Of a stretch of 22,748 nucleotides of DNA, positions 1 through 22,748 are shown in pieces. A program made the position numbers and the translations under genes. The notes beneath the pieces were generated by a model, which searched no databases, was not told the origin of the DNA, and was given only the letters and a program-made list of their open reading frames with translations. The stretch's first letter is position 1, and each line of letters begins with the position of its first letter. The stretch covers positions 1-22,748 of the IMG/VR virus record IMGVR_UViG_2671180674_000012. The stretch is one strand, 5' to 3'. The stretch is from a virus. Lineage: Duplodnaviria > Heunggongvirae > Uroviricota > Caudoviricetes.

Positions 1-1020
1 TTACTTACTGACCACAAGAGGTAGATCCAGTGTTGGCGTGATTTTTGTTTTGCGATCATAAATCAACACCTGATTTTCTGTTTTGTGCCCACTGAAAATT
101 TGTTTGTCGCGGCTGCTGCCTTCGTAATCTGAAATCCCTTTGGCTTTTATGTCATGGAAGTTGCACCCAAACGGAACGTCGGCTTTTTGCTCGGCTGCAC
201 GTTTAGCCTGATTCCACCAGTTGTTCAGCGTTTTAGCTATGACCTTCCCGCCTTTGGTTGTGTTGATCACATACTCGCATGTGCCGGAAGATACATTTCG
301 GGCTAATTGGATCACTGTGCGTAATCGCGGAGACCATTCCTTGATTTGTTTAGTGCCGGTCTTGTTTTGCTCAATGTAAATCCCTTTATCCATAATATCC
401 TGCCATTTCAGCTCGAGTACATCACCGAGCCTTGCCGCACAAAGATAGGATATCTCCATTGCAATACGTAACTGTGGAATTGCTTCCGCATATATCGCAG
501 CATACTGTTCATCGGTGATGTAAACAGTACGGGCTTTAAGCGTGAATTTTCTGACTCCTTTGCATGGATTATTTTTCACATACCCACGCTCATACCCCCA
601 TCCATATACGCGACTCAGACTTGCCAGTTCATGATTTGCCTGGGTCTTGCTCTCAAGCCCCCGTTTATCCATGAAAATTCTTACCTGCTCAATTTTTACA
701 TTATCAGCAAGCACTTTTCCGAATACCGCCAGCAACGCCCTTTGATGTTGTCGATAATCTTTTTGAGTTCGGGGTGCCAATTCTGTAAATGCAGGGGAGT
801 CCATAAACATGTGCCATAATTTAGCGACGGTCATTATGTCGTGGAGTTTTGCCTTTTCCAGTTCATAATTTTGCCAGACTTTAGCCACGCTGGTTTCCCG
901 CACCCTTCCGAGCCTTATCGTTCTCGTGCTTCCTTTGGGTTTCCATACGTAACTGTAACCATTCGATCTAACCCGTGGTGGCAGTACATTATCTTTTTTG
1001 TTTATTCTTGGTCTTCCCAT
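1..1020 (-). CDS. int: Tyrosine recombinase, phage integrase
   Basis: 339-aa ORF; C-terminal SGHKTENQVLIYDRK resembles the His/catalytic-Tyr region of lambda-family Int; overlapped at its start by an xis-like ORF; RBS GAGG upstream of ATG at 1020. Confidence 0.85.
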   Translation of the reverse strand: MGRPRINKKDNVLPPRVRSNGYSYVWKPKGSTRTIRLGRVRETSVAKVWQNYELEKAKLHDIMTVAKLWHMFMDSPAFTELAPRTQKDYRQHQRALLAVFGKVLADNVKIEQVRIFMDKRGLESKTQANHELASLSRVYGWGYERGYVKNNPCKGVRKFTLKARTVYITDEQYAAIYAEAIPQLRIAMEISYLCAARLGDVLELKWQDIMDKGIYIEQNKTGTKQIKEWSPRLRTVIQLARNVSSGTCEYVINTTKGGKVIAKTLNNWWNQAKRAAEQKADVPFGCNFHDIKAKGISDYEGSSRDKQIFSGHKTENQVLIYDRKTKITPTLDLPLVVSK

Positions 1021-3705: not shown

Positions 3706-3909
3706 TTACGGCGCTGTTTTAAGTCCTGCCGGGATTTCGTTATTATCCTGGTGAATAACTTTATCGACCGGATAACAGTTACCGGGAATTTTCTGTTCAT
3801 CTGCGGCAGCCATGCATTCTTTCATTGAGCTGTATACGCCAATAACCATGTCAACTGGTTCACCGGAAACAAGAAAAACCGTCAGAACAAGTGCAAATGT
3901 GGTATTCAT
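3706..3909 (-). CDS. Small hypothetical protein with hydrophobic N-terminus (possible signal/TM segment)
   Basis: ATG at 3909 overlaps the upstream gene's TGA (ATGA coupling); product begins MNTTFALVLTVFLVSG. The ORF-track start at 3963 would overlap the upstream gene. Confidence 0.4.
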   Translation of the reverse strand: MNTTFALVLTVFLVSGEPVDMVIGVYSSMKECMAAADEQKIPGNCYPVDKVIHQDNNEIPAGLKTAP

Positions 3910-4094
3910 TGCCAGCATCCTTTTTGCGTCGGGCGTAAACGGGCCAGCATTGAAGCAATGCATATCTCATTTGATGAATCTGGCTCATGCTTTATCTGAT
4001 TAATGGCATCCTCAATAAAGTTTTTATCGCCAGTGATAACGCCAATTTCAAAACGAGTCTCAGGCGTAGTGGAATTGAGTAATAACGTTTCCAT
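3906..4094 (-). CDS. Small hypothetical early-left protein (62 aa)
   Basis: Internal ATG at 4094 is preceded by GAGGA at good spacing; the longer ORF-track version (to 4229) has no RBS. Confidence 0.4.
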   Translation of the reverse strand: METLLLNSTTPETRFEIGVITGDKNFIEDAINQIKHEPDSSNEICIASMLARLRPTQKGCWQ

Positions 4095-4584
4095 TATCGC
4101 GTCCTCAACAATGAATTTTGTGATGCGGTGCCTGGTGCCTCCAGGTGACGTTAACCAGTTAACAATTAACGCCGGAATACAGGGACCCGCCTGCAAGTAC
4201 CTACCCATAAGTATTGATACGGAGAACAAATGGTCTTTTAACTGTTCCGCGTGCGCTTAGCCGCATTCACCACATCACAAAATTCACTTTAAAAAGGGCG
4301 GACATCAGCCAGCAATTAAACTGATGCCGCCAAAGGTCAATACTCAACATGGAGTGTTGTAGCGGGGTTGTCACTTAAGCGTATGGTCAACCTGCCAACC
4401 CGGTGCCACAATGGGGTAAGGATAACCCCGCCATACTTACCGCCGCGCCATTTCGCGGATTGCCACAACCGGAAGCGCACGGTCGAAGAAATCTAACGAC
4501 AAGACTTCTAAGGAAAAGAAACCTTCGCCGTGCGCTTTCGTGTTGTGTGCCTGCTTTTAACCACATCAGGCGAGGTGGTTCCTG

Positions 4585-4615
4585 TTGTTCCCCAACAACA
4601 AGAAATTTGTATAAT
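4585..4615 (+). promoter_or_regulatory. Putative sigma70 promoter for the antisense moron (TTGTTC -35, consensus TATAAT -10 at 4610-4615)
   Basis: Perfect TATAAT about 28 nt upstream of the ATG at 4643; -35-like hexamer with a 19-nt spacer (slightly long). Confidence 0.35.
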
Positions 4616-4642
4616 CCGGATACCCCAACAACACAGAGAAGA

Positions 4643-5161
4643 ATGCTATCTGGAATAACTTCATCAATAACGGCAATTAAAGTCTCGATTGATTTATTAC
4701 AGGTAATACTTGATGCAAAAAGCCAATCTGAACGTGAAAAGGCTGTCTACGAAATGCGTCGCCAACTGGCAGACTTACAAATACAGAACGCAGAGCTAGC
4801 GAAAACGCTCGCGCTTCAGTACGAGGAAATACTCTTGCTTAAGCAAAAATGTCATGAAATTGACGAGCGTAATCGAAAACTTGAATGCTATACGATACAC
4901 AAAACTGGTTTTGGGCATTTTGTCTATGCTTTCAGGAACAGCCTCGACGAAGAAGACACATGTTTTCACTATGCCTGTCCCAATTGCTATCAGCATGGTG
5001 TAATAGCAATACTTCAACCTGTTAAAATTGGTGAGCATGATAAGTTCCATATTTCTAAATGCCTGAAATGTGATTCGCGCTTTAAATTTGAACGCAATGA
5101 TGACTATATACCGCCCCCATCTGAAGAAGAGATAGGTAGAGCATTGAGCAGCAATCCGTAG
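4643..5161 (+). CDS. Hypothetical protein, predicted coiled-coil N-terminus and C-terminal CxxC...CxxC zinc-ribbon-like domain; moron antisense to the early-left operon
   Basis: 172-aa ORF from ATG 4643; the Arg-rich N-terminal extension in the ORF track (from 4403) looks non-coding. CPNCYQHG and CLKCDSRF motifs; lower GC than flanks; own promoter-like element. Confidence 0.55.
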   Translation: MLSGITSSITAIKVSIDLLQVILDAKSQSEREKAVYEMRRQLADLQIQNAELAKTLALQYEEILLLKQKCHEIDERNRKLECYTIHKTGFGHFVYAFRNSLDEEDTCFHYACPNCYQHGVIAILQPVKIGEHDKFHISKCLKCDSRFKFERNDDYIPPPSEEEIGRALSSNP

Positions 5162-5323
5162 GTTATTGCTGTTGTGGATATCCAGATTGTTAAAGAGCAT
5201 GCCGGAAGGTTATCCGTGTCCGGCGCACGACCACACGTAGCAGCGTGTTGGTCTCCATTTTTAATTCACCCCTTAATGGAGGATAAAATAATCGTGGTGC
5301 TGGTCGGCTCGGTCCCGCAGGTG

Positions 5324-5970: not shown

Positions 5971-6123
5971 TCAGTCAGTATTTCTGGCTAACCAGCGACG
6001 CGCGCCAGCTTCGGTTTTAAACGTTTTGCTTTTTGTATACGTCATCGCGGTGAACGTGCCGTCCTGGTTTGGGAACACGCCGTATACCAGAGATTCGTTG
6101 TTGCCAAGATCGATAGTATCCAT
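5971..6123 (-). CDS. Small hypothetical protein (50 aa), first gene of the early-left operon
   Basis: ATG at 6123 with GAGGT RBS, immediately downstream of the pL-like promoter; product MDTIDLGNNESLVYGVFPNQDGTFTAMTYTKSK... Confidence 0.4.
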   Translation of the reverse strand: MDTIDLGNNESLVYGVFPNQDGTFTAMTYTKSKTFKTEAGARRWLARNTD

Positions 6124-6196: not shown

Positions 6197-6224
6197 ATAA
6201 TACTACTTGAAGTAGACGTGTCAA
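6197..6224 (-). promoter_or_regulatory. pL-like early-left promoter with embedded operator palindrome
   Basis: On the minus strand: TTGACA (6224-6219), 16-nt spacer, TATTAT (6202-6197). The spacer contains the 13-bp palindrome CTACTTGAAGTAG (6203-6215); an additional AAGTAG half-site lies at 6231-6236. Confidence 0.5.
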
Positions 6225-6277: not shown

Positions 6278-6303
6278 CAAAAAAAACCCGGCAATACCGG
6301 GGG
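6278..6303 (-). terminator. Rho-independent terminator downstream of the repressor gene
   Basis: Stem CCCGG/CCGGG with 5-nt loop; the 9-A run on plus (6278-6286) gives a U-tract after the hairpin on the minus strand. Confidence 0.55.
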
Positions 6304-6319
6304 TTGTTAACAGATAAAG

Positions 6320-6808
6320 TCACTCAGAAGGTGGTGGGGTGCTGGCGTATTTCTCGTAGAAATCGTAAAGTTTCTTGAGTCTCATCTCAAAAGCCAGAAG
6401 CATATTCCTGGCTTCAACTGGCGGAAACTCCCGAAACGTTCGTATCAGTCGCTTTTCATCTTCACTTAACTCAGTAAATTCGCCATTGCTATTGGCACCA
6501 GATCTTTGTGTTACAAATGAATCTTCTGCTGGTTCAATTCCTTTCTCTGTTAGCTGACCGTATTCCAGCCATGCAGGTTCAACTCCCAGAAATTCTGCTA
6601 TTCGTTCGAGTTTTTCGTCGCGGGGTTTAGCTGTACCTAGGGTGTAGCGCCGCGCCATTTCGTATGTGACGCCCGTAGATAAGCTTAAGTCTTTGATGGA
6701 TTTGTTTTTTCTATCCATTTCTGACTTAAGTCTTGTTGCGAATGCGTGATGTTTATGTGCGTTTTCTACCATATGTAGAAGATTAAAGCAGTTGCCTTGA
6801 TTCGTCAT
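6320..6808 (-). CDS. CI-like phage repressor, XRE-family HTH, no S24 peptidase domain
   Basis: HTH signature HAFATRLKSEMDRKNKSIKDLSLSTGVTYEMARRYTLG; divergent from the cro-like gene across an operator-rich gap. Start is ambiguous (ATG 6808 or 6772, or TTG 6829) and there is no SD, so possibly leaderless. Confidence 0.75.
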   Translation of the reverse strand: MTNQGNCFNLLHMVENAHKHHAFATRLKSEMDRKNKSIKDLSLSTGVTYEMARRYTLGTAKPRDEKLERIAEFLGVEPAWLEYGQLTEKGIEPAEDSFVTQRSGANSNGEFTELSEDEKRLIRTFREFPPVEARNMLLAFEMRLKKLYDFYEKYASTPPPSE

Positions 6809-6878
6809 TTCTATTTTGTGTAGTTGCAAATTCTACTTTATGTAGTATTATTCTCTCGTTCTTGAAATGGAGCTGACG
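6809..6878 (+). promoter_or_regulatory. Divergent immunity control region: pR-like promoter with operator
   Basis: TTGCAA (6824-6829), 16-nt spacer, TATTAT (6846-6851), with the imperfect palindrome CTACTTTATGTAG (6834-6846) in the spacer; same half-sites as the pL operator. Confidence 0.5.
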
Positions 6879-13868: not shown

Positions 13869-14206
13869 GAAGGAAACAAACAGAAACAACAATTGCCGTT
13901 ATCTGTTGCCACCAATGACAAGTAAACGTATCTCAGGCGAGCGCATTGCGCCGTTCTGACGCGGATACATTAGCCTGGGCAGAAGGTTCTGGCAATAAAA
14001 AATAGCGTTTTCTTATCGGTGTCGGTAAGATTGTTGCGGGTGCTTGAGGCTGTCTGCCTCGGGCATGCCACTGTAAGGCAGACAGAGAAAAGCCCCAGTT
14101 AACATCACGCGTCCTGCAAGACGCTTAACATTAATCTGAGGCTCAATCCATGCTGAACACATGTAGGTTAGCCTCTTACGTGCCGAAAGGCAAGGAGAAG
14201 CAGGCT

Positions 14207-14362
14207 ATGAAGCAGCAAAAGGCGATGTTAATCGCCCTGATCGTCATCTGTTTAACCGTCATAGTGACGGCACTGGTAACGAGGAAAGACCTCTGCGAGG
14301 TACGAATCCGAACCGGCCAGACGGAGGTCGCTGTCTTCACAGCTTACGAATCTGAGGAGTAA
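14207..14362 (+). CDS. hok: Hok/Gef-family type I toxin (HokD/RelF-like membrane peptide)
   Basis: Product MKQQKAMLIALIVICLTVIVTALVTRKDLCEVRIRTGQTEVAVFTAYESEE is near-identical to Hok/Gef peptides as I recall them; AAGGAG RBS; structured leader and own terminator. Confidence 0.8.
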   Translation: MKQQKAMLIALIVICLTVIVTALVTRKDLCEVRIRTGQTEVAVFTAYESEE

Positions 14363-16184: not shown

Positions 16185-16559
16185 ATGGGGATAGAATTTG
16201 TTTTGCCTTACCCGCCGACGGTAAACACCTACTGGCGACGCCGTGGCAGCACATATTTTATATCGGAAGCCGGTAAGCGTTATCGCCGTGATGTGGCACT
16301 TATAGTTCGCCAGCAGAGGCTGAAATTAAACCTGTCCGGAAGGCTGGCGATAACGGTTATTGCCGAGCCTCCGGATAAGCGCCGTCGTGATCTGGACAAT
16401 ATCCTGAAAGCGCCACTGGATGCACTGACACATGCGGGGTTGCTCATAGACGATGAGCAGTTTGATGAAATCAATATTGTGCGCGGTCAGCTCGTTCCTG
16501 GTGGGCGGCTGGGCGTGAAGATTTACGAAATAATGCATGACGGGCAGGTCCAAAAATGA
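16185..16559 (+). CDS. rusA: RusA-family Holliday junction resolvase
   Basis: LPYPPTVNTYWRRRG...PPDKRRRDLDNILKAPLDALTHAGLLIDDEQ matches the RusA signature; AGAGG RBS. Confidence 0.85.
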   Translation: MGIEFVLPYPPTVNTYWRRRGSTYFISEAGKRYRRDVALIVRQQRLKLNLSGRLAITVIAEPPDKRRRDLDNILKAPLDALTHAGLLIDDEQFDEINIVRGQLVPGGRLGVKIYEIMHDGQVQK

Positions 16560-17377
16560 AACTGGAAGATTTACCGAAATACTATTCCCCAAAATCGCCA
16601 GGCCTGACTGATGTATCCGCCTCGACGTCAAAAGATGCACTGAGTATCACTGATGTGATGGCTGCGCAGGGGATGACACAGAACCGGGCTGAGATGGGAT
16701 TTTCTGCGTTCCTGGGGAAAATGGGTATTAGTATGAATGACAGGGTGCGGGCAACAGAATTACTGACAGATTATGCATTAAGTCAGTGCGATCGTGTGGC
16801 GGCGTTAAGGAAACTTCCGGCAGAAATAAAACCGGCAGTGATGCGTATTATGGCTTCGTATGCTTTTGAGGATTATGCCCGCAGCGCAGCGAGTAAAAAG
16901 CAGTGCCCTTGTTGCCATGGGGAAAAATTTATTGAAAGCGAAGTTTTTACAAACAAGGTTCAGTATCCGGATGGTAAGCCGCCAGTATGGGCAAAGTGTA
17001 CAAAAGGCGTGTATCCGTCTTACTGGGAAGAATGGAAAAAAATCCGGGAGGTGGTGAAAGTTTCCTGTCCTGAATGTAAAGGGAAGGGGGAGATCTCCAC
17101 TGCCTGTAAAGACTGCCGTGGGCGTGGTGTTGCCATTCATCGTGAAGAGTCAGAAAAACGGGGTATGCCTGTTATCAGGGGCTGCCGGCGTTGTGGCGGT
17201 CGTGGCTATGAAAGACTGCCATCAACGGAGGCATTTAATGCCATATGCAAAGTGACGAGTGCTATCACGCTTGATACATGGAAAAAATCAGTGAAACGCT
17301 TTTACGATACGTTGGTGGTTCGGTTTGACATTGAAGAGGCATGGGCGGAGCGGCAGTTAAAGATGGTAACGCGATAG
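16556..17377 (+). CDS. Putative late antiterminator (Q-like) with four CxxCxGxG zinc-finger repeats
   Basis: ATGA overlap with rusA; CPCCHGEKF, CPECKGKG, CKDCRGRG, CRRCGGRG; positioned directly upstream of a promoter/terminator pair. Identity as Q is inferred from position. Confidence 0.55.
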   Translation: MKLEDLPKYYSPKSPGLTDVSASTSKDALSITDVMAAQGMTQNRAEMGFSAFLGKMGISMNDRVRATELLTDYALSQCDRVAALRKLPAEIKPAVMRIMASYAFEDYARSAASKKQCPCCHGEKFIESEVFTNKVQYPDGKPPVWAKCTKGVYPSYWEEWKKIREVVKVSCPECKGKGEISTACKDCRGRGVAIHREESEKRGMPVIRGCRRCGGRGYERLPSTEAFNAICKVTSAITLDTWKKSVKRFYDTLVVRFDIEEAWAERQLKMVTR

Positions 17378-18829: not shown

Positions 18830-19876
18830 ATGATTAATACTGTAAAAATATCCAGTTGTGAGTTAATCAACGCTGATTGCCTGGAATTTATCCAGACCTT
18901 ACCGGAAAACTCTGTCGATCTGATAGTCACAGACCCGCCATACTTTAAAGTGAAGCCCGAGGGCTGGGATAACCAGTGGAAGGGCGACGCTGATTACCTG
19001 CAATGGCTGGACCAGTGTCTTGCGCAGTTTTGGCGGGTATTAAAACCCGCCGGAAGTCTTTACCTGTTCTGTGGTCATCGCCTGGCATCTGACACCGAAC
19101 TCATGATGCGTGAACGTTTTAATGTGCTGAACCACATTATCTGGGCGAAGCCGTCCGGACGCTGGAATGGGTGCAACAAGGAAAGCCTGCGGGCGTATTT
19201 CCCGGCAACAGAGCGCATTCTGTTTGCCGAACATTATCAGGGGCCATACCAGCCCAAAAGTGACGGTTATGCAGCAAAGGGGCGCGAGCTTAAGCAGCAT
19301 GTCATGGCCCCGCTGATTTCTTACTTTCGTGATGCGCGCGAATCACTGGGGATAACGTCAAAACAGATAGCAGAAGCCACCGGAAAGAAAAACATGGCTT
19401 CGCACTGGTTTGGTACCAGTCAGTGGCAGTTACCGAATGAGGCCGATTACAGTAAACTGCAGGCGCTGTTTGCACGTGTGGCGGCAGAAAAACACCAGCG
19501 CGGTGAACTGGAGCAGCCACACCACCAGCTGGTCAGCACATACAGCGAACTGAACCGGCAATATGCCAGCCTGCTGGAGGAATACAAATCACTGCGGCGT
19601 TATTTTTCCGTATCGGCTGTCGTTCCTTATACGGATGTCTGGACGCACAAGCCCGTGCAGTATTATCCGGGTAAGCATCCCTGTGAAAAACCGGCGGATA
19701 TGTTGCGTCAGATAATTACTGCCAGCAGCCGTCCAGGCGATTTGGTCGCAGATTTTTTTATGGGGTCGGGGTCGACAATAAAAGCGGCACTGTCGCTGGG
19801 ACGCAGGGCGATTGGCGTGGAACTGGAAGAGGAACGTTTTAATCAGACGGTCAGAGAAATAACGAAAGATTTTTAA
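18830..19876 (+). CDS. DNA methyltransferase, N6-adenine/N4-cytosine type, beta-class motif order
   Basis: DPPY catalytic motif near the N-terminus (LIVTDPPYF) and AdoMet motif FFMGSGST near the C-terminus; 348 aa. Confidence 0.85.
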   Translation: MINTVKISSCELINADCLEFIQTLPENSVDLIVTDPPYFKVKPEGWDNQWKGDADYLQWLDQCLAQFWRVLKPAGSLYLFCGHRLASDTELMMRERFNVLNHIIWAKPSGRWNGCNKESLRAYFPATERILFAEHYQGPYQPKSDGYAAKGRELKQHVMAPLISYFRDARESLGITSKQIAEATGKKNMASHWFGTSQWQLPNEADYSKLQALFARVAAEKHQRGELEQPHHQLVSTYSELNRQYASLLEEYKSLRRYFSVSAVVPYTDVWTHKPVQYYPGKHPCEKPADMLRQIITASSRPGDLVADFFMGSGSTIKAALSLGRRAIGVELEEERFNQTVREITKDF

Positions 19877-21108: not shown

Positions 21109-21245
21109 CATATCTGCGCCACGCCCGGCGCACATCAAAAAACCACAGAGCCTTTCAGGGGGGAGCTTACGGGATGGTCAGTGTGACTTTCTCTGTGGGC
21201 TGCTCATCCCGGGGCGAGGCTCACCCACTAAAAGGAAAAGTCACG

Positions 21246-21671
21246 ATGTTTGGTATTTTCAAAAAGAAAACCCGTAAGGCTATTACTGAAGTGAAGAAAA
21301 TGGAGAACCGCGACGCGGTGGAGGCGACCGTCTGGGGCGCGTATTCCATTGCATACGCTGACGACACCTGTGACGCGAAAGAAATTGCGGTACTGGAGAA
21401 AACCATTGCAGCACTTCCTGCCTTTGCGCCGTTCTCCGGTGAGATTGCCCAGATGAGCGCGAATATCCGCGCCCGTTATGAAGCATCGCCGCGTTCTGCC
21501 AATGCTGAAGCCCTCCGTCAACTGGCTGATGTCGCCGGTACTGATGATGCCGTTAATGTGCTGTGCCTGTGTCTGGATATCGCAGACCAGGATGGCATTG
21601 GTCCGGATGAAGAAGCACAGCTCAAGAAAATTGCTCAGGCGCTGCAGTTACCGCTGGAGCAGTACCTGTGA
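21246..21671 (+). CDS. TerB-like (tellurite-resistance TerB family) protein
   Basis: 141-aa product with AAGGA RBS; helical, acidic composition and motifs (EIAVLEKTIAALP, VNVLCLCLDIADQDGIGPDEEAQLKKIAQAL) resemble the TerB fold from memory. Confidence 0.6.
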   Translation: MFGIFKKKTRKAITEVKKMENRDAVEATVWGAYSIAYADDTCDAKEIAVLEKTIAALPAFAPFSGEIAQMSANIRARYEASPRSANAEALRQLADVAGTDDAVNVLCLCLDIADQDGIGPDEEAQLKKIAQALQLPLEQYL

Positions 21672-21834: not shown

Positions 21835-21862
21835 GCGGGCATTGAAAGCCCGCTGCATTTTT
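21835..21862 (+). terminator. Terminator between convergent genes
   Basis: GCGGGC-ATTGAAA-GCCCGC followed by TGCATTTTTA; overlaps the stop codon of the minus-strand DUF4145 gene. Confidence 0.45.
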
Positions 21863-22541
21863 ATTGCTGCTGTTCCTTAATGCGTTCCGGTAGCACAAAT
21901 GCCACTTCAAGGAACAGGCGGAGAAACGCCACAAACTCTTTTGCCTGTTCACCACTGGCCTCGAGCTCGTGCACAGCCTCATTGCCTTCCATACGGATTC
22001 GGTGAGCCCAGTTTCTCATTGATTCCGTCAGTATGCCGTCCTGCCGTGCCAGTTCAATGCGTGACAGCAGATTGCCTTTTTCGTACCCCAGGGCACGGAG
22101 GGCAACCTCGAGGACGCTACGGCAGCCAACAATGATACGCGGGGCGGTTCTGCCGGACCGAACATCCTCCTGCAACTCGGTGAAGACTGCGCGAATTTTT
22201 TCGGGATAGTGGGGGGAGTCATCGGGCAGCCTGAGTTCAGGATAGATTTTGATGCTTCCCTCAAGTGGAGCATTCAGCACCCAGGCTTTGTTGTTGATGG
22301 CTTTTTTCATGTCCACCAGTTCACTGACTGAACATTCGAATGCGATCATTAATGGGTTGTTACATTCTGTGCAAAAGTCTGTTGAGTATGCTTTTGCTGA
22401 TGTTATTTCAGAGGTGCGCGGCTGTTGCACGTAAAGCTTGTTTTCTGTAGCCGGGCGCCTGCTGTGGTACTGGGTGACCTCATTCAGAGAAATATGAACC
22501 TGATGAAGGCAGTACGGGCATCTAATTTTCAGGGAGTACAT
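21861..22541 (-). CDS. Zinc-ribbon plus DUF4145-domain protein
   Basis: ATG at 22541 with AAGAGG upstream; N-terminus MYSLKIRCPYC...CTECNNP; C-terminus matches my recollection of DUF4145 (RSVLEVALRALG...NWAHRIRMEGNEAVHE...FVLPERI). The ORF-track extension to 22730 lacks an RBS. Confidence 0.6.
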   Translation of the reverse strand: MYSLKIRCPYCLHQVHISLNEVTQYHSRRPATENKLYVQQPRTSEITSAKAYSTDFCTECNNPLMIAFECSVSELVDMKKAINNKAWVLNAPLEGSIKIYPELRLPDDSPHYPEKIRAVFTELQEDVRSGRTAPRIIVGCRSVLEVALRALGYEKGNLLSRIELARQDGILTESMRNWAHRIRMEGNEAVHELEASGEQAKEFVAFLRLFLEVAFVLPERIKEQQQ

Positions 22542-22748
22542 ATGACCTCTTCGACAGAAGTGATAACTGAATTTGAAAATTGCATAGCAGATTCTGCCAT
22601 TGATTCTGTAGCAGCGATAGAACGAAGGTTTGCTGCTGCTCAGACCCGGTATGGTCATGATGCAGCCGTCAAAGGGCTGGCAATGGCGTTTGTTATTGCG
22701 GAGAACCGCCGTCGCTTTATTGAAGCGCAAATGACACTAAAGCAATAA
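22542..22748 (+). CDS. Small hypothetical protein (68 aa), divergent from the DUF4145 gene
   Basis: ATG 22542 with AGGGAG SD at 5-nt spacing; product MTSSTEVITEFENCIADSAIDSVAAIERRF... ; the window ends at its stop codon. Confidence 0.5.
   Translation: MTSSTEVITEFENCIADSAIDSVAAIERRFAAAQTRYGHDAAVKGLAMAFVIAENRRRFIEAQMTLKQ

Follow-up and report, generated by a model that had tools for sequence, protein, structure and literature searches.

Why would a gene run against the early-left operon of a lambdoid prophage, and what could its product do there? The question is raised by IMG/VR virus record IMGVR_UViG_2671180674_000012, of which positions 1 to 22,748 (the whole stretch of DNA that was analysed, hereafter the window) form the left arm of an Escherichia coli prophage of the Rac/Qin-like lambdoid type. 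Among the minus-strand early-left genes lies a plus-strand open reading frame (ORF) of 172 amino acids (aa) plus a stop codon, with dicB and DUF1482 on its left and the phrog_2151, DUF1391 and helix-turn-helix (HTH) repressor genes on its right (Table 1), just as an earlier note, made from the letters of the DNA, had placed it. That note proposed an accessory gene such as one for superinfection exclusion or abortive infection, and recognised no protein family in the product. The second statement does not stand, as the product matches both phrog_1244 and a solved protein, Rip1; the first fares well, given that Rip1 is a characterised prophage abortive-infection protein. Our reading, to which we assign a probability of roughly three in four, is that the leftward early dicF-dicB operon carries a moron cassette at window 4559-5201, which encodes a divergent member of the Rip1 family.

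The family assignment draws on several kinds of search. The ORF product matches phrog_1244 end to end (residues 3-156) with an expectation value (E) of 7e-32; no match was obtained for it in Pfam (E<=0.01), NCBIfam or PADLOC. While a word-indexed protein search with the window protein returned near-identical sequences only, distant relatives were obtained by tblastn in phages and by searches seeded with hkaP and DMS3-25. The tblastn relatives are full-length, share 25-32% identity and come from HK620 (hkaP), HK629/HK630, PhiR29/PhiR49, Klebsiella phages and the Pseudomonas Mu-like phages DMS3, JBD30, D3112 and MP38. We aligned the window protein with hkaP-like and DMS3-25-like sequences (alignment A1, 43 sequences); HK446 Rip1 is not part of it. 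Among 1.8 billion proteins, the A1 profile detected 4231 cluster representatives (50% identity) at E<=1e-3. Against the PDB, the same profile found 9oox_L, "ring interacting pore 1 (Rip1)", with an E of 1e-34 over profile positions 3-147, the next match having an E of 0.002. The entry 9oox is the Rip1 of phage HK446 in complex with the T6 small terminase, and a direct BLASTP comparison of the ORF product with HK446 Rip1 gave 24% identity over nearly the full length (E 6e-12).

Structure prediction, one of the checks that had been proposed for this gene, led to the same protein. The AlphaFold2 (AF2) model, with a predicted local distance difference test (pLDDT) score of 82, consists of a helix at residues 2-24, a long helix at residues 28-81 and then five strands. 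When the model was compared with the PDB by Foldseek, 9oox_M/L were the sole matches with E<0.001 (E 2.5e-6, probability 1.0; template modelling (TM) scores of 0.45/0.57 against 9oox_M), and the next match had an E of 0.39. The coiled coil and CxxC...CxxC C-terminus that had been described from the translation are borne out: the N-terminal half is helical, with a hydrophobic/amphipathic helix at 2-24, and residues 83-150 form a beta-rich domain that holds the four cysteines (C112, C115, C140 and C143, spaced as CxxC-x24-CxxC). All four are invariant in the 43 sequences of A1, together with L66 and Y83, and all four are also kept in HK446 Rip1, a sequence outside the alignment. In terms of computed hydrophobicity only, residues 1-26 (mean Kyte-Doolittle (KD) hydropathy 1.2-1.4, hydrophobic moment (muH) 0.26-0.29) are akin to the N-terminus of HK446 Rip1. 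Longer frames, either from a GTG at 4403 (252 aa) or as the 211/267-aa versions found in databases, were rejected because the family profile begins at residue 1-3 and also because the extension is backbone DNA common to prophages with an empty site. Judged by its sequence and its modelled fold, the plus-strand ORF is a genuine gene, and its product is a divergent new member of the known Rip1 family in a new backbone context.

What is known of Rip1 gives this assignment its functional meaning. A review (PMC13434031) of the work of Patel et al. (2026, Nature 651:1060) describes Rip1 as a defence that prophages encode in a single protein, which is harmless alone and acts by abortive infection. 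Upon infection, twelve Rip1 monomers are described to ring the eleven-subunit small terminase, with the N-terminal amphipathic helices forming the pore and the C-terminal half touching the terminase ring (PMC13434031). In the same account, the escape mutants of Pseudomonas phages are altered in the portal and those of coliphages in the small terminase, and Rip1-related genes are widespread in Proteobacteria and mostly borne by prophages (PMC13434031). HK446 Rip1 (gp37, YP_007111990; PDB 9oox) and the window protein are alike in length (164 and 172 aa), in their helix-helix-beta-domain architecture and in their four cysteines, and both genes lie antisense in an early-left (pL) operon with a conserved leader upstream. 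The backbones differ, however: HK446 is an N-dependent lambdoid phage with the slot between N and ral/cIII, whereas the window is Rac/Qin-like and has its slot between the phrog_2151 gene and dicF. The leaders also belong to different classes, CCCCTACAG in HK446 and CCCCAACAAC in the window.

The opposed orientation is a recurrent property of the family. Rip1 homologues point against their neighbours in every annotated context, namely HK446, HK620 (hkaP), PhiR29_2 (between cI and yfdP), DMS3 and a Salmonella prophage. The Salmonella allele is 88% identical and lies in a Rac-like prophage with a ParE/Phd pair in place of dicB. In the window, the gene sits in an insertion relative to prophages in which the slot is empty (Table 1), and the GC content of this cassette is ~39-42%, versus 47-54% in the flanks. 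Variable presence at this position was another proposed check, and it is what we found: no more than 3 of 5426 complete E. coli genomes contain this allele's coding sequence, against 4606 genomes with the flanks, while elsewhere the same slot holds alleles that are 31-36% identical or, in some prophages, nothing at all. The O55:H7/O157:H7 allele has a match in 738 of the 5426 genomes (646 at >=80% coverage). With a slot this variable, the gene is not a uniformly conserved core early gene. Immediately to the right of the rip1 slot, other prophages (L007 2590-2754, L008 1981-2145) have 164 bp more, including a plus-strand ORF of 69 aa; the corresponding window position, 5289/5290, is a second small variable insertion point.

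How might such a gene be expressed? In eight rip1 cassettes, the ~100 nt before the start codon are far better conserved than the proteins, and the window's copy of this region shows homology to the P22 and lambda DNA that holds the sieB promoter and sas. P22 sieB is the textbook example of a prophage-expressed exclusion gene. The region includes a near-invariant 30-nt core, GCCTGCTTTTAACCACATCAGGCGAGGTGG, which is present upstream of rip1 in HK446, HK620, PhiR29_2 and O55:H7 prophages and just upstream of sieB in lambda and P22. In the P22 record (NC_002371.2), the sieB promoter and a "sieB RNA start site" are annotated directly downstream of the core, and the alignment equates the P22 start (the A before CCCCTACAG) with window A4622 (the A before CCCCAACAAC). 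The earlier note had singled out a consensus TATAAT, and it is indeed there, in line with the -10 of the P22 promoter, although the hexamer alone is not significant (8 in the window versus 9.2 expected by chance). The promoter claim is therefore founded on homology with the mapped P22 sieB promoter and not on the hexamer, and other rip1 cassettes have TATAAT, TAAAAT or TTAATC at the -10. The long AT-rich leader of the same note, by contrast, has to be given up: positions 4300-4600 have 53-54% GC and hold a minus-strand DicF-like small RNA as well as backbone DNA that is also found in prophages without the gene. By homology, the leader is predicted to run for ~21 nt from A4622, with a Shine-Dalgarno (SD)-like GAGAAGA at 4636-4642. 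The proposal that the gene is a moron finds support in this homology to a mapped promoter, in the variability of the gene and in the comparable situation of HK446 Rip1, which runs antisense in the pL operon, between N and cIII.

The leader has two further traits. A motif of 9-11 nt occurs twice in each, the first copy lying in a hairpin that is upstream of the -10 and the second at position +2 of the predicted mRNA, and the two copies co-vary between the leader classes CCCCAACAAC, CCCCTACAG, TCCACAGTCA, CCCCAATGCAA and CCCCCACAA (leaders in L013-L134). These motif classes may be specificity classes for antisense recognition. Furthermore, the 127-nt P22 sas RNA, which has been sequenced by RNA-seq (PMC13397905), is the exact reverse complement of the leader block from the start codon to just past the core, and because of this correspondence in the aligned region the window is predicted to encode a sas-like RNA on its minus strand, with boundaries set by homology. 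Reviews citing Ranade & Poteete 1993 relate that P22 sas turns off SieB translation and so lets the phage escape its own exclusion. In an RNAalifold analysis of 26 leaders, the middle hairpin of the sas-like RNA, CUUGUUGUU-GGGG-AACAACAGG, has compensatory changes in 5/7 pairs. It contains 29 G.U cells on the minus strand versus 4 A.C cells, and the helix is therefore better on the sas strand. The stem in the core is invariant and hence uninformative on covariation, and the same invariance extends to a conceivable H-type pseudoknot in the core (GCCUG/CAGGC + ACCAC/GGUGG).

By analogy with P22 sieB and with HK446 Rip1, we infer that the gene is expressed in the lysogen from a sieB-type promoter and that its product confers pore-forming abortive infection in response to terminase or portal rings. 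Lysogenic cells would produce the protein from its own promoter (-10 at 4610-4615, start near 4622), and alone it would do no harm. When a superinfecting phage has advanced to late gene expression, the C-terminal four-Cys domain would bind the small-terminase (or portal) ring of that phage. The bound ring would then template a ring of Rip1, the N-terminal helices of which would insert in the inner membrane as a pore – presumably killing the cell before progeny are complete. If the resident prophage is itself induced, transcripts from the early-left promoter (6224-6197) would run across the gene in antisense and give rise to the sas-like RNA (~4647-4532, minus strand), a step modelled on P22 sieB/sas. 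By pairing with the SD and the start codon, this RNA would stop Rip1 synthesis and spare the phage from its own defence.

Several points weigh against this reading. The identity of 24% to the solved Rip1 is low. The generic promoter scan did not call the site at 4610-4615, because the -35 region is poor (TTCCCC/GTTCCC). The sas-like control of the rip1-like gene is a tentative extrapolation from sieB to another cargo. In addition, the copy of the prophage in E. coli C5 carries insertion sequence (IS) elements and may be defective, and the terminase of the prophage itself, which bears on the compatibility of the protein with its own phage, lies outside the window.

Other explanations have to be measured against the same evidence. 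The SieB/Esc/sas loci of P22 and lambda share with the window the slot, the promoter, the transcription-start region and the sas antisense-RNA region, and one may ask whether the product is simply a SieB-like exclusion protein, that is, one located in the inner membrane and stopping the macromolecular synthesis of lambdoid phages that superinfect, by a mechanism unrelated to ring sensing. The name given to HK620 HkaP, "putative superinfection exclusion protein", points the same way. HkaP is a member of the same family (28% identity) with the same slot and leader, but its annotation was positional and the protein was never characterised; a literature search on hkaP returned unrelated papers only. 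The cargo of the window is nevertheless unrelated to SieB: it has no match to PF14163 (Pfam, E<=0.01), whereas true SieB cargos behind the same leader reach E 1e-27 to 1e-30, its maximum 19-residue KD of 1.55 leaves no transmembrane-grade segment, and its homology to Rip1 is strong. We regard a SieB-like protein as very improbable. A protein with the Rip1 fold and a diverged function, which senses another oligomeric phage or host protein or forms no pore (e.g., by sequestering the terminase ring and blocking packaging), is unlikely too, though less so. Such divergence would suit the 24% identity to the solved Rip1, the differences of 64-69% between alleles of the same slot, a family of thousands of 50%-identity clusters, and known triggers that already differ (the portal in Pseudomonas, the small terminase in E. 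coli). What speaks for a conserved function is that the alignment is full-length and takes in the N-terminal helices, which build the pore in Rip1, and that the invariant residues are kept.

Two more proposals are, in our view, barely credible. A helical coiled region followed by CxxC-x24-CxxC has a superficial likeness to DksA, and one could imagine a zinc-finger modulator of host or phage transcription, DksA/TraR-like or other, built of a coiled coil and a C4 finger; yet there is no zf-dskA_traR or other Pfam/NCBIfam match, and DksA is not among the Foldseek matches in the PDB, where Rip1 is the sole significant one. It could equally be argued that the plus-strand ORF is not a functional unit, since transcripts running leftward have to traverse this DNA on their way to dicF and dicB, and that it is a spacer or antisense-RNA stretch of the dicF-dicB operon that is not translated, or the reverse side of a real gene, the 134-aa minus-strand ORF at 4796-5200. 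This minus-strand ORF exists but was rejected as a gene since it has no family match, whereas the plus-strand product aligns over its full length with a family that counts >4000 cluster representatives and has invariant cysteines. An abortive-infection protein of the Rip1 family, carried by a moron cassette, therefore remains our preferred reading of the plus-strand gene.

Comparable systems from Pseudomonas phages help to place this gene. The Rip1 homologues of DMS3-like phages are 26-28% identical to the window protein over the full length and are also transcribed against their neighbours. They differ in that they lie in the late operon of Mu-like Casadabanvirus (in DMS3 between the terminase genes) and in that the reported escape mutants are in the portal, not the small terminase. 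The slot between the terminase genes is also that of Tab in phage JBD26. Tab/anti-Tab resembles the system proposed here in being a prophage-expressed antisense moron that has a promoter and acts late on virion-assembly proteins; unlike the window protein, however, Tab has 83 aa, its target is the tape-measure protein, and a protein partner neutralises it.

Food for further speculation comes from the leader, as it is not restricted to rip1. A scan of IMG/VR with the 30-nt core gave at least 120 viral contigs (L013-L132). Among the matches listed, a Rip1-like ORF stands behind the core in 17 of the 113 contigs with enough downstream DNA, the first ORFs of 102 core loci fall into ~23 clusters, and the cargos include Rip1-like proteins, true SieB (PF14163) and many small proteins of unknown function, among them membrane or zinc-ribbon proteins. 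Perhaps, though we would not put it at even odds, the ~100-nt block with its core, covarying hairpin, -10 and duplicated 9-11-nt motif is a portable platform for expression and self-immunity, in which a sieB-type promoter overlapped by a sas-like RNA is reused by lambdoid phages for interchangeable defence cargos, namely Rip1, SieB and no fewer than 20 further small protein families. Any cargo would then be on in the lysogen and silenced when its carrier goes lytic, and the motif classes would set which antisense RNA neutralises which cassette. In the literature searched, we found no description of a shared antisense-controlled leader with swappable cargos. A second type of leader (L016, L023, L069) has its cargo only 30-40 nt past the core, with a single SD-sequestering hairpin and no -10-like hexamer. 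In contig L054, the cargo behind the same leader is a 136-aa protein with a coiled coil and CxxC...CxxC; it went undetected by the Rip1 profile at E<=1e-3 and may be a very distant Rip1 relative.

At the other end of the gene, a hairpin had been noted at 5201-5224. The inverted repeat (GCCGGA..TCCGGC) is present, but it lacks a U tract and is backbone sequence, and we rejected it as the terminator of the cassette on account of this missing U tract, its unremarkable fold and the fact that the DNA is common to empty-site prophages. A second hairpin follows directly (Table 1). It was not called by the terminator scan, and it is possibly a weak terminator of the plus-strand transcript – a better candidate than the first one, though imperfect.

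The surroundings of the cassette are those of a known prophage type. A prophage adjoining yccA-tusE in E. coli strain C5 matches the region at 99.3% identity, and an E. coli draft assembly has a gene order identical to that of the window. From left to right, the minus-strand order is int, Xis-like DUF4224, RecE-like exonuclease, ydfD, dicB, dicF, then (past the plus-strand ORF) the gene for a protein of 211-215 aa, DUF1391 and the repressor. The DicF-like small RNA scores 37.9 bits against RF00039, below the gathering score of 48, with a full-length match (E 2e-6). It has a terminator-like site of its own and the position of DicF upstream of dicB, and the homologous site in phage Tritos is annotated DicF. 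At gathering thresholds, Rfam gave no match in the region. Further to the right, a strong terminator-like site at 6287-6301 (minus strand) ends the repressor gene, and directly after it comes the promoter at 6197-6224, which is likely the early-left promoter of the operon running from DUF1391 to dicF and dicB. A transcript from this promoter would cross the rip1-like gene antisense.

Some features of the window lie apart from the cassette. The 773-aa exonuclease joins an Exonuc_VIII (RecE) N-terminal segment to a C-terminal Rv2179c-like 3'-5' exoribonuclease domain (E 1e-65), a fusion that is unusual in comparison with classical RecE. A toxin-antitoxin locus of the hok/sok type lies inside the prophage at 14038-14362 (plus strand), where Rfam gives a sok RNA at 114 bits and Pfam a Hok/Gef protein of 70 aa at E 3e-23. 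Downstream of the Q antiterminator (16556-17377), the window's right end holds genes for a DNA methylase (18830-19876), a TerB-like protein (21174-21671) and a minus-strand DUF4145 protein (21861-22730), which are possibly further accessory or defence genes.

Table 1. Features of the rip1-like cassette and of the leftward early region around it, in window coordinates.
Feature	Position	Strand	Remarks
Integrase	1-1020	-	left end of the window
DUF4224 Xis-like gene		-	between integrase and exonuclease
RecE-like exonuclease, 773 aa	1307-3628	-	
DUF1482/YdfD	3706-3963	-	left flank of the plus-strand ORF
dicB, cell-division inhibitor	3906-4229	-	downstream in the leftward operon; Pfam DicB E 1e-25; annotated dicB in E. 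coli C5
DicF-like small RNA	4296-4342	-	Rfam RF00039; terminator hairpin (4301-4328) and T run
sas-like antisense RNA region	about 4532-4647	-	complementary to SD and start codon of the rip1-like mRNA, ending in the conserved core; boundaries by homology
Near-invariant 30-nt core	4549-4578	unassigned	GCCTGCTTTTAACCACATCAGGCGAGGTGG
Inserted cassette relative to the empty slot	4559-5201		643 bp; blastn against E. coli PK8241 and phage Tritos: homology ends at 4558 and restarts at 5202
Middle hairpin of the sas-like RNA	4581-4602	-	CUUGUUGUU-GGGG-AACAACAGG
Two CCCCAACAAC copies	4590-4599, 4623-4632	+	flanking the -10
-10 TATAAT of the sieB-type promoter	4610-4615	+	counterpart in the alignment of the -10 in the sieB promoter annotated in P22
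Predicted transcription start	4622	+	A before CCCCAACAAC; alignment with the P22 sieB RNA start
Rip1-family gene, 172 aa	4643-5161	+	phrog_1244, family profile against PDB 9oox, Foldseek, BLASTP, AF2
Inverted repeat GCCGGA..TCCGGC	5201-5224		-13.2 kcal/mol, z -1.4
Second hairpin (5229-5253), then CUCCA and U5	5229-5262	+	-13.9 kcal/mol, z -4.3; possible weak terminator
phrog_2151 protein, 211-215 aa	5324-5971	-	upstream gene of the leftward operon
DUF1391/YdfA-like protein	5971-6123	-	upstream gene of the leftward operon
Strong sigma-70-like promoter	6197-6224	-	TTGACA-16-TATTAT, 11/12; promoter scan
HTH repressor	6320-6829	-	

A rare and highly divergent Rip1 allele in a dicF-dicB operon is a candidate for mapping how the sensor domains of this family diversify toward different terminase or portal rings. 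Given that a related allele is present in those 738 complete E. coli genomes, O157:H7 and O55:H7 included, the family may influence the phage susceptibility of pathogenic strains. The shared sieB/sas-type leader also suggests a simple answer to the question of how a prophage avoids death by its own late-acting abortive-infection protein. Finally, the slot behind this leader is a place to harvest further uncharacterised defence genes.

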